Source: Candidatus Dojkabacteria bacterium
GTDB lineage: Bacteria > Patescibacteriota > Dojkabacteria > J137
Length of the DNA: 64,000 nt
NCBI GenBank assembly: GCA_040006935.1
Contig: JBDTVZ010000003.1
Span: forward strand, 139,988-203,987
Direction of reading: 5' to 3'
Shown here: positions 13,316-18,619 of the stretch, piece after piece
Layout of the letters: the number at the start of each line of letters is the position of its first letter
Position numbering within the stretch: position 1 is the first letter of the stretch
The notes under the pieces: generated by a model
Told to the model about the DNA's origin: nothing
Database searches by the model: none
What the model saw: the letters and a program-made list of their open reading frames with translations, nothing else
Program-made: the position numbers and the translations under genes

Positions 13316-15523
13316 TTAATAAAATTTCAACATATCTAATGCTTTCGTTTCGACATTATTCTCTTCAATATATTTCTGTTCGTTAGAGATTAGTCTTCCC
13401 TTCAATTCTTCATCACTTAATATTTCATCAACTCCAGATGCAACTGATTCTGAGGAATTATTTTCTATTCTAAAGCATTCGTCTTTAAATTCTGAAAACT
13501 GTTTTATATTTGTAATTATTACGGGATTTAATGCAGCTAATCCTTTCCTGACTGCTGCGCTTGCGGACTCTCCAACATCTGAATAATTAAACACACTTAA
13601 ATCAGAGCTCTGGAGTAATATTTCAATTATTTCATCGGGTAAAAAATCTGTGAAGAATCTTACATTTTCGCCAAGTTGTTCTTCCTGGATTGTCTCCAAA
13701 CATTTTTTATACAATCCACTGGAATGTATATTATTCGCACTTACTGCGTTTAAGCAAAGTAATAAAATATCAGGATATGTTTTCTTTAAGGTTTCCACAG
13801 CCCAAATCACTTCGGGAATTCCTTTGTTTGTATTTAGCAAACCATGAGTTGCGATTATAGGAAAATAATTATTTAATTCTAATTTATTTTTTAAAATATT
13901 TTTATTTCTCTTTTTGAATATAATATTAAAATGTTTGAATAAAACAATATTATTTAAGCCCTGGCTTGCGTACTCATAATCCTCGGTATTATGAATCAAT
14001 ACTTTATCTGCAAGTTTAAGGCCACCAACTTCTTTAATAAAATCAAAGTTTGTATTTCTCACTGCATGTAATGTTACTATTACTTCAATTTTTTCACTTT
14101 TCAAACTTTCAATCAACTTTGTCAAGGACTGAGGCGAAAAGTAATTTCCTGAATGATATTGAATATGAACAATATTAATATTTTTTTCTTTTGTAAATTT
14201 TAAAAATTCTGCAAAATTTTCTTCTCCAGTTTTCCAAAGTCTTAATACATTAGAATCATCTTTATCCGATCTATCAGCAATATCTTTATTCGCTACAAAA
14301 TAAAAAGATTTGAACGAAGACTGAATGGACTTATAAAGATCTTCTGAATAATCTGCGATTCCGCTCTCATCGTTGATTGGTGTAATTATTGCAATATTTT
14401 TCTCTTTCAAATCCGCTATCTTTTCAATTTCATTTACAAATTCTATAGTTTTCACAGCGGAGTTATTCCAAGTATATTTATCTGCAGTTTCACTAGCTAA
14501 TTTAATTTTATGCTCAAATTTTTCTGGATGGTCGTAAATTTCTCTCATTTTATTTCCTAAATCATTCACATCAGGCTCAGCCCATTTTGCACCAAGATTT
14601 ACAAGCTCAGAATCTTTTGCAAATTCAAGTTTGTAATCAACCAATATCGAATTGGTTTCATTACAAAAATCTAAGTAAGCACTGTAATTCGTAGCAATTA
14701 CAGGAGTCCCCAAATACATTGCTTCAAGTATCGGCAGTCCGAATCCCTCTGCTCTGCTTGGATAAACTTCACAGTCGGCTGTTGAATGTAAATTAGCAAG
14801 ATCTTGTTCTGTTAAATCTGGATTATTAATATGAATAACTTCTGGAGAATTTTCTTTCTTTAATTGAGTCAATAATTTATCAACTTCATTATCTGGTCCA
14901 GGGAAACTTTTTATTATTAAAGTTACATCGTCTTCATTAGTAAATTTATCAAAATATGCTTTTAAAAGAACGTCAATACCTTTTCTTTTCTTCGCAGTAC
15001 TTATGTGTAGGAATTTAAACTTCTTATTAGTTTTTAATTCATAAGGAGAAGTCTTTATATTCAGTAAAGAATCATCTAAGGCATTTGGAATAACTTTAAT
15101 TGGAACACTTATGCCAGAATTAATCAAAATATCTTTAGTGAAATTACTAGCAACCATTACACCGTGAATATTTTCGTTTATCTCTTTAACCCAAATTTCA
15201 GGATACACCGATTCTTCCCACGCAATATAAATAAATTTAATCTTTCCAGGAAGATCTTTAAGTCCATGTAAATTAGAAATACCTTTAGGAAAATTATTAT
15301 AAATCACAACATCAGTTTCGTTTCTATTAAATTGAACAAGATCTTTTAATTCTGATCTTGAATTTAATTCTTCAATAGTTGGAACAAAATCAATTTTATT
15401 TTTCTCTCCGTAAAAATTTACCTTGTAAGAATTTAATTTGGAAAGAGCAATTCCTAAGCCTCGATTAACTCGAGCAAGACTATAGTTTGTAAAATATGGA
15501 CCGACAATTTGAAGAGTTTTCAT
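13316..15523 (-). CDS. Tandem two-module GT4-family glycosyltransferase.
   Basis: The first module carries the EGFGLPILEAMYLGTPVIAT motif (E-x7-E GT4 signature). The second module has a degenerate version of the same motif. Confidence 0.75.
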   Translation of the reverse strand: MKTLQIVGPYFTNYSLARVNRGLGIALSKLNSYKVNFYGEKNKIDFVPTIEELNSRSELKDLVQFNRNETDVVIYNNFPKGISNLHGLKDLPGKIKFIYIAWEESVYPEIWVKEINENIHGVMVASNFTKDILINSGISVPIKVIPNALDDSLLNIKTSPYELKTNKKFKFLHISTAKKRKGIDVLLKAYFDKFTNEDDVTLIIKSFPGPDNEVDKLLTQLKKENSPEVIHINNPDLTEQDLANLHSTADCEVYPSRAEGFGLPILEAMYLGTPVIATNYSAYLDFCNETNSILVDYKLEFAKDSELVNLGAKWAEPDVNDLGNKMREIYDHPEKFEHKIKLASETADKYTWNNSAVKTIEFVNEIEKIADLKEKNIAIITPINDESGIADYSEDLYKSIQSSFKSFYFVANKDIADRSDKDDSNVLRLWKTGEENFAEFLKFTKEKNINIVHIQYHSGNYFSPQSLTKLIESLKSEKIEVIVTLHAVRNTNFDFIKEVGGLKLADKVLIHNTEDYEYASQGLNNIVLFKHFNIIFKKRNKNILKNKLELNNYFPIIATHGLLNTNKGIPEVIWAVETLKKTYPDILLLCLNAVSANNIHSSGLYKKCLETIQEEQLGENVRFFTDFLPDEIIEILLQSSDLSVFNYSDVGESASAAVRKGLAALNPVIITNIKQFSEFKDECFRIENNSSESVASGVDEILSDEELKGRLISNEQKYIEENNVETKALDMLKFY

Positions 15524-15540: not shown

Positions 15541-16137
15541 TTACATCTTAACAAACTCGTCTGGATTACCAAGTAGAAGAACAATGTCCTGCATCATTAA
15601 ATCCAAAAGTAATTGATCTCTTCGTCTCTTTCTTAATTGAAACTCAGAAGGTTTTAAAACCATGTAATGAATTTCTTTGTTGAATTCATATTGAGCTTTT
15701 GTAACAATATCTTCCAGAACTTTTAAATCAACATTTCCAACAATAACCATATCAATAATCTGAACTCCCATGAAGATTCCTTTTGTGAAAGAAGGAGTTA
15801 GAAATGCATATTCAATTTCACCAAGCCTCTTCTCGTTATTTATAATTTCCCCTCCTAGTCCATATGATTTATGGAAAATTCCAATGAGTTCACTAATAAA
15901 AGGATGGTTGCCATTTAGTTCAAAATATTTTCTATTTCCTTTTGCTTCGGATTTAACAATCTTTGTTTCCTCTAATCTACTCAATTCCCTTCTCACAGCG
16001 TTAATTTCTTCTTTTAATTCTCTTACTGCACCTCGTAAATGAATAGGTTTGTCCGGATTCATCAAGAAATACCTTAGAGATTTAATCCTGACTTTTGATA
16101 TAAATATATGCTCTAAAGATTTTATAGTTAAGCTCAT
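15541..16137 (-). CDS. Hypothetical protein with an N-terminal winged-helix-like DNA-binding region.
   Basis: LRGAVRELKEEINAVRRELSRLEETKIV resembles an ArsR/wHTH recognition region. The function is unknown. Confidence 0.4.
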   Translation of the reverse strand: MSLTIKSLEHIFISKVRIKSLRYFLMNPDKPIHLRGAVRELKEEINAVRRELSRLEETKIVKSEAKGNRKYFELNGNHPFISELIGIFHKSYGLGGEIINNEKRLGEIEYAFLTPSFTKGIFMGVQIIDMVIVGNVDLKVLEDIVTKAQYEFNKEIHYMVLKPSEFQLRKRRRDQLLLDLMMQDIVLLLGNPDEFVKM

Positions 16138-16232: not shown

Positions 16233-16276
16233 AGTAAAAATAAAAATTGCTCGCAAGCCAAAAAACCTACGAGCAA
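16233..16276 (-). terminator. Rho-independent terminator downstream of fic.
   Basis: A 7-bp stem ttgctcg...cgagcaa (16247-16276) followed by a U-run on the minus strand (complement of aaaaataaaaa at 16236-16246). Confidence 0.5.
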
Positions 16277-16300
16277 TCGAATACATTGCTACTACATTTA

Positions 16301-17395
16301 TTAAATACTATCGTTATTCATGATTTGAATTAAATCTCTATTAAAATAAAGATTATAAATCCCACTTTTACCAGCTTCTATTAAACCAGTCTCAGCAAGT
16401 AACTTTAGGTTTCTACTTGCAGTATCAGCACCAACATTCATAGTAGTACTAAGCAACTTCGGCGAAATTACAGGAAAAGTAAATAATTTATCTACAATCA
16501 TATCCAGATTATGTATCAGTTTTGTAGATTCACTACTTCTTAATTTTTCTAAGAACTTATCGTAAGTATCATTAACTTTTGTTACTAATTCTAATGTTGC
16601 CTTAGACTGACTGTAAAATGCATCAAGCATGAAAGAAATATATGCTTCCCAATTGCCAAGAGAAGTAACTTCATTAAGAACAGTGTAGTATTCAGGTCTG
16701 TGTTTATTTATATAGTTACTAACATATAAAATAGGTATCCCAATTACATTATCCTCAACCAATTGTAAAAGCATCAAAATTCTTCCAGTTCTACCGTTTC
16801 CATCTCCAAAAGGGTGAATTGCTTCGAACTGATAATGACATATAGCACACTTTATTAATGGGTCTAAGTCATTAGTACTTTTATCATTGACGTAATTTTC
16901 CCAGTTACTCATATAATCTGGAATAGAGCTAGATATAGGAGGGGTATAAACAATAGAACTAGTACTTTTGTTCATTATTTGATTTTGTAAATTTCTGTAA
17001 CTACCATCTCCTGAAAGTAATATTTTTTGTATACCTGTTATTAGTCTTGTACTTAAACCCAATTCAGAGAGATTTTTAAATCCCCACATTGCTGCATCTC
17101 TATATTTTATAACCTGGCTTTCATTAGAACCTCTTTGTGATTCGGGAAAAACTTCATTTTGTAAAACATCAATAATTTGTGTCTCAATATTTTCGATTTT
17201 CGAACTATCAACGGCTTCTTTAATTAATGTAGGGTAAGTTAAAAGCAATGGCTCAGGAATTGAACGACATGCACCCTTTAATTCCCCAAGGAGGGCTCTA
17301 GTATTACCAATTTTCTCAAAGAATTTACTTTTATCAAAAGTAGCATTTGTTGGTAATTTAGCCAGTAGATGGGGCTTATTTGGATCAAAAGTCAT
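16301..17395 (-). CDS. fic: Fic/DOC family protein (AMPylase-type) with a C-terminal winged-helix domain.
   Basis: Canonical Fic motif HPFGDGNGRTGRILM. The start is assigned to the internal Met (MTFDPNKPHLL...). The tracked ORF extends to 17530 across a repeat-rich, non-protein-like region. Confidence 0.8.
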   Translation of the reverse strand: MTFDPNKPHLLAKLPTNATFDKSKFFEKIGNTRALLGELKGACRSIPEPLLLTYPTLIKEAVDSSKIENIETQIIDVLQNEVFPESQRGSNESQVIKYRDAAMWGFKNLSELGLSTRLITGIQKILLSGDGSYRNLQNQIMNKSTSSIVYTPPISSSIPDYMSNWENYVNDKSTNDLDPLIKCAICHYQFEAIHPFGDGNGRTGRILMLLQLVEDNVIGIPILYVSNYINKHRPEYYTVLNEVTSLGNWEAYISFMLDAFYSQSKATLELVTKVNDTYDKFLEKLRSSESTKLIHNLDMIVDKLFTFPVISPKLLSTTMNVGADTASRNLKLLAETGLIEAGKSGIYNLYFNRDLIQIMNNDSI

Positions 17396-17419
17396 AAGAT
17401 TTAAATAATATTTATATTT

Positions 17420-17540
17420 AATTATACCCAACACATTGGATTTTGTCAAAATATCCAATGTGTTGGCTCTGATACATTGGATGATACCATGTGTTATTAA
17501 AAATACATTGTATTCTTTATAAGTATCCAATGTGTTCCAG
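17420..17540. promoter_or_regulatory. Cluster of four or more copies of an ACATTGGAT / ATCCAATGT palindromic motif in the fic upstream region; candidate operator array.
   Basis: cccaacacattggat (17428-17442) and its exact inverted copy atccaatgtgttgg (17453-17466), plus atacattggatgatacc (17472-17488) and gtatccaatgtgttcc (17524-17539). Confidence 0.4.
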
Positions 17541-17541
17541 T

Positions 17542-17569
17542 AAAAAAGAGCCCATTTGGGCTCTTTTTT
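17542..17569. terminator. Bidirectional rho-independent terminator downstream of recA.
   Basis: aaaaaa-gagccca-tt-tgggctc-tttttt: a perfect 7-bp GC-rich stem flanked by an A-run and a T-run. Confidence 0.6.
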
Positions 17570-17584
17570 AGATTTTACTTTCTT

Positions 17585-18619
17585 TTAAACCATTCCCGCA
17601 GCTTTCTTTACCTCTGTCCAAACTTCTTTTAATAATTTTTGATCTTTTTTCAAAAGTTCTTTCACCCCTTCTCTTCCTTGTCCTAGGTTTTCACCGTTTC
17701 TTTTAAACCAAGCTCCTGCTTTTTCAATAACATTGTATTTCAAAGCAGCGTCTAATAAACTAGAAACTTTATCAATACCCTCTCCGTGAATAATTTCAAA
17801 TTCTGCTTCTCTAAATGGAGGAGCAACTTTGTTCTTAACAATTTTGACTCTTACTACATGTCCAATAATATTCTCATCTTTAGTAATTTTCTCTTTAGAT
17901 CTAATATCCATTCGGATAGATGCATAGAATTTAAGCGCATTTCCTCCAGTTGTAGTTTCTGGATTTCCAAACATAACTCCAATCTTCATTCTCAATTGGT
18001 TGATAAAAATAATTGTGGTGTTTGTTTTGCTTGCTATACCTGTAATTTTTCTTAATGCTTGACTCATAAGTCTAGCTTGTAATCCCATATGTGAATCTCC
18101 CATTTCACCATCAATTTCTGCTTTAGGTGTTAATGCAGCAACAGAGTCGACAACAATAATATCCACAGCACCTGATCGTAAAAGTGTTTCTAAAATCTCT
18201 AATGCTTGCTCACCATAGTCTGGTTGAGAAACTAACAAATCGTCAGTTTTAATTCCTAATTTTTTTGCATAACCTGAATCAAATGCATGCTCAGCATCAA
18301 TAAATGCAGCAATCCCACCAGCTTTTTGTGCTTCAGCTAAAATACTTAAAGCTAAAGTAGTTTTACCAGAAGACTCTGGACCATAGATTTCAATAATTCT
18401 TCCCTTTGGAACTCCACCAGTTCCTAGTGCAATATCGAGCGACAATGCTCCTGTTGGAATAGAATCTATTTTCTTGATCTTATCTTCAGCTAAAGTCATA
18501 ATTGCACCTTCGCCGTACTGCTTGGTTATTTGAGCCATAGCCATTTTTAAGGCCTCTGCTTTGGCAGTGTTAGTAGTCTGAATTACTGGTTTCTCTTTTT
18601 CATCGGAATGTTTTGCCAT
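17585..18619 (-). CDS. recA: Recombinase RecA.
   Basis: [19 protein letters not shown] Walker A and full-length RecA-like sequence ([14 protein letters not shown]2 region). Confidence 0.95.

Follow-up and report, generated by a model that had tools for sequence, protein, structure and literature searches.

A promoter-overlapping array of inverted repeats as the probable autorepression operator of a SoFic-type fic gene in Candidatus Dojkabacteria

In the 64-kb stretch of Candidatus Dojkabacteria contig JBDTVZ010000003.1 analysed here (the window), the gene fic is preceded by a 12-base word, AACACATTGGAT, that occurs six times in alternating orientation within 107 nt (17430-17536), between the terminator of the upstream gene recA and the fic start. 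These half-sites form three inverted pairs, the nearest of which is interlocked with a consensus promoter. Four lines of evidence lead us to conclude that the array probably consists of operators through which the fic product represses its own gene: the precedents of the related proteins CccR and SoFic, the overlap with the promoter, the matching layout upstream of the closest homologue, and the enrichment of inverted repeats upstream of family members together with their covariation with the DNA-recognition helix of the encoded protein.

All array and fic coordinates refer to the minus (gene) strand, and half-sites are read in gene sense. The distal pair comprises F1 (17525-17536, AACACATTGGAT) and, 11 nt away, R1 (17502-17513, ATACAATGTATT, compared with ATCCAATGTGTT); the central pair, F2 (17484-17495, AACACATGGTAT) and R2 (17471-17482, ATCCAATGTATC), is separated by a single nucleotide; and the proximal pair is made up of F3 (17453-17464, AACACATTGGAT) and R3 (17430-17441, ATCCAATGTGTT). 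F1, F3 and R3 are exact, while R1, F2 and R2 carry two mismatches each. Because the spacers run 11/6/1/6/11 nt, the array is symmetric about position 17483, and taken whole it is an imperfect palindrome of 107 nt. A first-pass annotation of this DNA had described four or more copies; the repeat array is real, with the count now standing at six, organised as three inverted pairs. That annotation also asked how common the motif is, and within the 64-kb window the exact 9-mer ACATTGGAT is restricted to the array, with all four of its copies between 17433 and 17533. With up to two mismatches allowed, the 12-mer has 13 matches in the 64 kb, six of them inside the array. In 20,000 dinucleotide shuffles, a single 9-mer reached four copies within the 189-nt intergenic region 70 times (p=0.0035); none of the 672 window tiles besides that of the array attains such a count, and the best inverted repeat of the array outscores 100/100 shuffles.

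The promoter scan placed a -35 hexamer, TTGACA, at 17444-17449, within the 11-nt F3/R3 spacer (ATTTTGACAAA), and a -10 hexamer, TATAAT, at 17421-17426. Separated by 17 nt, the two boxes score 12/12 against the sigma-70 consensus and represent the only perfect TTGACA-N16-18-TATAAT in the window. F3 lies directly upstream of the -35 box and R3 takes up most of the 17-nt -35/-10 spacer, such that F3-N11-R3 flanks TTGACA and extends toward TATAAT, an overlap between inverted repeats and a gene's own promoter of the type seen for CccR. Transcription of fic would start near 17413-17415, 3' of all repeats, giving a predicted leader of ~20 nt that has no Shine-Dalgarno motif. Such a leader is normal here, since SD-like 4-mers (GGAG, GAGG, AGGA, AAGG) are missing between -20 and -4 from all 48 window open reading frames (ORFs) that are 150 aa or longer, in a rough count with starts set to the first ATG. 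This genome appears to start translation without Shine-Dalgarno pairing. Upstream, recA ends at 17585 and is followed by an intrinsic terminator identified by a terminator scan (17541-17570; hairpin AAAAAAGAGCCCA/TGGGCTCTTTTTT), whose stem is a perfect 14-nt inverted repeat and which shields fic from recA read-through. Downstream, fic has its own terminator at 16245-16278, in conserved backbone that is common to relatives, and is thus a monocistronic unit.

The longest ORF (16301-17530) starts at a TTG inside F1 and encodes 409 aa, reading through the repeats and adding 45 aa before the sequence MTFDP, exactly as the first-pass annotation had remarked in calling this extension implausible. In 30 homologues (44-51% identity, 345-367 aa), the alignment starts at the methionine equivalent to that of MTFDP. 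The extended N-terminus, whose conservation in orthologues would have spoken for the longer form, is absent from all 30 of them, and P0010 has an unrelated 9-aa overhang. Similarly, the NCBI record P0001 ('Fic family protein', from a Candidatus Dojkabacteria metagenome-assembled genome) is 100% identical over 364 aa and starts at MTFDP. As both the homologues and the NCBI record start at ATG 17395, the 45-aa extension is an artefact of taking the longest ORF, and the fic coding sequence runs from 16301 to 17395 (364 aa). The suspicion of a mis-called start therefore holds for the longest-ORF track, while the public record is correct on this point.

The encoded protein is a class II Fic enzyme. 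Pfam recognises Fic_N (E=7.5e-17) and Fic (E=4.6e-19), and the catalytic motif H194-PFGDGNGRTGR (HPFGDGNGRTGR), which conforms to the class pattern HPFx[D/E]GN[G/K]R, is intact, with H194, P195, F196, D198, G199, N200, G201 and R202 invariant in our alignment (A1). N-terminal to it in the same polypeptide lies S64-S-K-I-E68-N (S64-x-x-x-E68-N), an inhibitory motif of the form (S/T)xxxE(G/N) as defined in PMC9755527, whose S64 and E68 are likewise invariant in A1. By phmmer, residues 32-363 align with SoFic at E ~1e-50. The AlphaFold model (predicted local distance difference test, pLDDT, 85.8) superimposes on the SoFic structures 3zcn and 3eqx with a template-modelling (TM) score of 0.86 over ~365 columns (368 for 3zcn), and helix 22-44, near the N-terminus, lines up with the helix through which SoFic dimerises. 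The model terminates in a winged helix of three helices and two strands (H297-306, H312-319, H323-334, E340-344 and E347-351, all at pLDDT >90), spanning approximately residues 297-352, in which helix 323-334 (ADTASRNLKLLA) is the putative recognition helix. Both comparisons bear out the earlier proposal that Fic has a C-terminal winged helix of its own, and the whole corresponds to the SoFic-type architecture (IPR048770). Small intergenic ORFs were also considered as a possible antitoxin and rejected, since they amount to just 26-28 aa, have TTG or GTG starts and lie on the opposite strand.

Comparison with close Dojkabacteria relatives ties the repeats to fic. In blastn alignments with three of them (L255, L256, L257), the segment 16310-17579 has no counterpart; homology ends at 17579/17580 and picks up again at 16309 (L255/L256), so that terminator, array, promoter and fic together make up one 1270-bp cassette. 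The relatives keep the order recA, variable slot, and then a gene for a 198-aa protein (15541-16137 in the window). The slot is occupied by a DUF559 gene and a 62-aa ORF in L255 (2932-3687) and by YecM in L257 (4334-4912), and the 198-aa protein is 93% identical in the former and 83% in the latter. Neither copies of ACATTGGAT nor fic were found in L255, L256 or L257, all of which retain the 198-aa gene. That the array lies inside a cassette specific to fic links the repeats with fic and speaks against this neighbour as the protein that reads them, and fic is, on synteny, a self-contained and horizontally acquired cassette. With recA adjacent, a LexA/SOS box was also considered; it was ruled out, the motif being specific to the cassette, downstream of recA and its terminator, and absent upstream of recA.

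Autoregulation by proteins of this architecture has been documented. CccR of Yersinia pseudotuberculosis is a class II Fic protein with a C-terminal helix-turn-helix (HTH) domain whose dimer represses its own promoter 3.3-fold, binding AGATAATCAT-N26-ATGATAATCT, two inverted 10-bp repeats near the -35/-10 elements, as established with a lacZ fusion, electrophoretic mobility shift assays, DNase footprinting, isothermal titration calorimetry and palindrome mutation (PMC9755527). SoFic specifically recognises the 100 bp ahead of its own start codon, and does so as a dimer, not as a monomer (bioRxiv 10.64898/2026.07.09.737422). Given these two precedents, the mechanism is established for the architecture. 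CccR has the same N-terminal inhibitory helix, Fic core and C-terminal HTH as the window protein, and a dimer on two inverted ~10-bp repeats near its own -35/-10 in negative autoregulation is what we propose here. It is nevertheless a distant relative. No chain labelled CccR matches the window protein in sequence over its full length, and chain 7xux (2022; presumed CccR) matches the Fic core only (E 3.9e-9) and superimposes poorly (TM 0.55). Furthermore, CccR is an effector secreted by the type VI secretion system that targets FtsZ, while nothing points to secretion of the window Fic.

SoFic (SO_4266/MloA of Shewanella oneidensis; PDB 3eqx, 3zcn) is the closest well-characterised homologue, with 32% full-length identity that includes the winged helix; by sequence, the unnamed chain 9vjc is a slightly better match. 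SoFic dimerises through its N-terminal helix, and its own upstream DNA holds five ATGTCGAT half-sites, some inverted and some in direct orientation. It differs in its recognition helix (AKRQTASVYLKQL, versus GADTASRNLKLLA here), in the half-site (ATGTCGAT versus AACACATTGGAT) and in the arrangement of half-sites, and its precedent is one of promoter binding. CbFic2 of Coxiella burnetii is likewise a class II Fic protein whose C-terminal winged helix binds DNA, with DNA-induced dimerisation switching it between AMPylation and deAMPylation (PMC10628234); no operator has been described for it, and its fold matches the window Fic poorly (TM 0.59). A further parallel exists in autoregulated toxin and toxin-antitoxin promoters (e.g. 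AbiEi, cited in PMC9755527), which share multiple palindromic operators over the promoter of a potentially toxic enzyme, with cooperative binding. Those systems have a separate antitoxin, whereas here the inhibitory element (the alpha-inh helix) and the DNA-binding domain reside within the toxin polypeptide itself.

The upstream regions of other family members were examined in 82 contigs carrying a SoFic-type fic; the metagenome matches listed are relatives at 28-38% identity, and the closer clade (45-50% identity) was sampled one protein at a time. For each locus, the 130 nt before the start were searched for their best inverted repeat, which was compared with dinucleotide shuffles and called significant when it beat 95% of them. 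Among the loci listed, to which all family counts below refer, a significant inverted repeat precedes 26 of 62 intergenic fic loci (42%) and 12 of 123 non-fic genes on the same contigs (10%; Fisher p=1.3e-6, Mann-Whitney p=4e-14), with the proviso that control starts were the first ATG and fic starts were set by homology, which may slightly depress the control rate. The centre-to-centre distance of the half-sites (arm plus spacer) clusters at 19-23 bp, approximately two helical turns. This would correspond to ~71-78 Å, close to the 70 Å reported between the DNA-binding helices of the CccR dimer (PMC9755527). Several loci (L135, L140, L154, L177, L190) have two to three pairs that lie 40 or 70 bp apart, resembling the window. 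The closest homologue, P0002 (50% identity, with unrelated neighbouring genes), is preceded by CACACCTAGAAA-gTTGTAt-TTTCTAGGTGCATG-atc-TATAAT, in which a different word takes up the layout of the window: the -35 element sits in the repeat spacer, one half-site occupies the -35/-10 spacer, and a second pair is present upstream.

The half-site sequence itself, on these comparisons, tracks the recognition helix of the winged-helix domain across the family. At least two TGTCGA words occur upstream in 7 of 10 loci whose recognition helix reads RQ[TA]AS, versus 1 of 56 others (Fisher p=1.2e-6); the proteins of this group share 55-86% identity, and outside these words their upstream DNA cannot be aligned. 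Loci L139, L154, L155, L160, L174, L156 and L134 combine the helix AKRQTASVYLKQL with two to six TGTCGA words, and the variant helix AGRQAASRYLK pairs with TGTCGC. SoFic carries this same recognition helix (AKRQTASVYLKQL). The 300 bp upstream of SoFic, taken from Table S2 of bioRxiv 10.64898/2026.07.09.737422, contains five ATGTCGAT half-sites, at -137R, -107F, -68F, -57R and -28F. Three of them fall in the best-bound fragment F1, two in fragment F2 and none in fragment F3. We therefore predict ATGTCGAT as the SoFic operator half-site; if that is right, ACATGTCGATTGAATCGACAT and TATGTCGATAAAA in SoFic fragment F1 would be the protected sites.

Under the autorepression model, the SoFic-type class II AMP-transferase would most likely form a dimer through its N-terminal helix, so that its two winged helices, at the C-termini, would be spaced by about two turns of DNA. 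One dimer would occupy each inverted pair of the type AACACATTGGAT-N11-ATCCAATGTGTT, in which the half-site centres are 23 bp apart. As the perfect proximal pair F3/R3 has one half-site on each side of the -35 hexamer and takes up the -35/-10 spacer, a dimer bound there would shut out RNA polymerase. The distal F1/R1 and the weaker central F2/R2 probably contribute cooperative binding. Cooperativity on a very strong promoter could then provide tight, fast feedback that keeps a potentially toxic enzyme at low levels.

Along with the choice of control starts, several points weigh against this model. The Pfam match to SoFic-like_C is sub-threshold (E=0.0065). CccR uses one pair with a 26-bp spacer, compared with three pairs and spacers of 11/1/11 bp here, and CbFic2 binds random DNA with high affinity and no clear sequence specificity (PMC10628234). 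In the clade closest to the window protein (45-50% identity), two of six sampled loci have a significant inverted repeat; L120, L258, L259 and L260 have none and show short GATATAT-type direct repeats only. The inverted-repeat rule covers ~40% of the family, not all of it. Finally, the motif scan spans 64 kb, and a wider regulon or a different cognate regulator may exist.

The direct repeats of this clade merit description in their own right. In L120 (745-785) and in L258, L259 and L260 (~1300-1500), whose Fic proteins are 45-49% identical, GATATAT(T) or GATATACT recurs at least twice, and all of these loci but L259 have one such word within ~8-17 nt of the ATG. One possibility is that the words serve as tandem extended -10 promoters of near-leaderless mRNAs; another is that they are half-sites arranged as direct repeats.

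A more elaborate reading, which we regard as unlikely, would make the array an allosteric platform that couples Fic copy number to catalytic mode. By analogy with CbFic2, operator-bound dimers would be deAMPylating, and Fic molecules left over once the three dimer sites are filled would be free, prone to the monomeric state and AMPylating. A separate part of this reading takes the pattern seen across the family as a specificity code, with half-sites about two turns apart, a sequence that tracks the recognition helix, and ATGTCGAT as the predicted SoFic site.

To the explanations that dispense with Fic as the regulator, or with regulation altogether, we assign jointly about a quarter of the probability. 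The strongest among them, itself improbable, is that a regulator encoded elsewhere in the genome binds the repeats and that fic is one member of its larger regulon. The searched part of the genome amounts to 64 kb, beyond which other sites or regulators may lie; within it, however, the motif is unique and absent upstream of recA. Moreover, fic and the array were acquired as a single cassette, and the half-site follows the Fic recognition helix across unrelated genomes, a pattern unexpected for host regulators.

The neighbouring 198-aa protein, put forward in the first-pass annotation as an alternative winged-helix regulator, might instead act on fic in trans with the repeats as its operators, a suggestion that we consider very unlikely. 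Its gene is adjacent to fic on the same strand, its N-terminus gives a weak winged-helix signal (3r0a, a putative transcriptional regulator, E=0.54, residues 13-63), JGI labels it an ArsR-family regulator, homologues of it are named ArsR family by some sources, and in L143 a homologue lies 640 nt upstream of fic. Yet this is a conserved gene of the lineage, with 232 homologues, and L255, L256 and L257 possess it without fic or ACATTGGAT. The array lies within the fic-specific cassette, outside the conserved backbone, and the motif is absent before the 198-aa gene itself and elsewhere in the 64 kb. Furthermore, 75 of the 76 other listed fic loci do not have a homologue of the 198-aa protein, and many of them share the same operator architecture. 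The presence of the protein in relatives that have neither fic nor the repeats thus disfavours that proposal.

Nor is it at all probable that the array once served, or still serves, the DNA mobility that brought the cassette in, whether as a recombinase core site or as inverted repeats at the ends of a miniature element. In favour are the cassette itself, inserted into the variable slot after recA or replacing its content, the imperfect palindrome that the 107 nt of the array form, and the R-N6-F pairs, which resemble the 11-8-11 layout of tyrosine-recombinase sites. The repeats are nonetheless confined to one end of the cassette; neither the 16310 boundary nor any other part of the 64 kb has a copy, and the cassette has no recombinase or transposase gene. 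The repeats thus fall short of mobile-element ends or a recombinase site, which would have copies at both ends or at multiple loci and an associated recombinase. Nor did the palindrome turn up next to a fic gene in either of two collections. A search for CACATTGGAT-N1-30-ATCCAATGTG (10+10 nt) in 596 Gb of representative genomes returned 118 loci, none from Dojkabacteria and none with a Fic homologue in the locus, while ACATTGGAT-N1-30-ATCCAATGT (9+9 nt) gave 54 scattered matches in IMG/VR, with all gap sizes and no fic, which is the level of chance. Finally, mobility leaves unexplained both the exact overlap with a perfect promoter and the covariation across the family.

Among the 118 loci, 73 have a 15/16-nt gap and conform to CGCTCCCACATTGGAT-N15/16-ATCCAATGTGGGAGCG, which resembles the repetitive extragenic palindromic (REP) sequences of Pseudomonas. 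This REP-like palindrome of the Pseudomonas fluorescens group (L005, L010, L014 and ~70 further Pseudomonas loci) shares the 10-nt half-site core. As no Fic gene lies nearby, we judge the match to be a coincidence.

That the repeats act as RNA, in a structured leader or small RNA, seems most improbable. The strand does form a stable fold (-25.4 kcal/mol as single-stranded DNA, z=-6.2), as would any palindrome, but the consensus promoter sets the transcription start 3' of every repeat, the strong terminator stops read-through from recA, and a search of Rfam (E up to 1) gave sub-threshold noise only, with no family at threshold. A set of identical 12-mers that face both ways at fixed 11-nt spacings is also more in keeping with protein-binding sites than with the stems of an RNA. 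A chance cluster is the least credible explanation of all: low-complexity repeats are common in AT-rich intergenic DNA and the region has 27% G+C, but the motif is not low-complexity, its spacing is symmetric, and the shuffle and tile comparisons given above set the array apart.

Some features of the surrounding locus may also be recorded. The 198-aa gene belongs to a conserved Dojkabacteria family whose 232 homologues are up to 93% identical to it. In L255, two extra genes (310 and 196 aa) separate it from a downstream glycosyltransferase gene, and the window has neither. The window glycosyltransferase (13316-15523) is a 735-aa double enzyme conserved in L255 and L257 and matched by PF20706, 'GT4 in conflict systems' (E=5e-13). 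In L143, the sole co-occurrence among the 76 listed fic loci, the homologue of the 198-aa gene (199-795, 31% identity) precedes a fic gene (1434-2501) that seems frameshifted, with ORFs at 1434-1730 and 1752-2501.

For this genome, the analysis fixes the start of fic and defines a monocistronic acquired cassette in the variable slot after recA, giving a likely function to a puzzling repeat array in an uncultivable bacterium of a candidate phylum, the Dojkabacteria. The array itself is a modest finding; of more use are two by-products, the operator rule for the family and the half-site predicted for SoFic, with concrete operator predictions in AACACATTGGAT for the window Fic and ATGTCGAT for SoFic. 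If the specificity code is true, it would be readable across a large family of modules, spanning phyla, that combine toxin and repressor in a single protein. More generally, our results suggest that self-repression via promoter-overlapping half-sites ~21 bp apart is common in SoFic-type Fic proteins across phyla, and is not a peculiarity of CccR.

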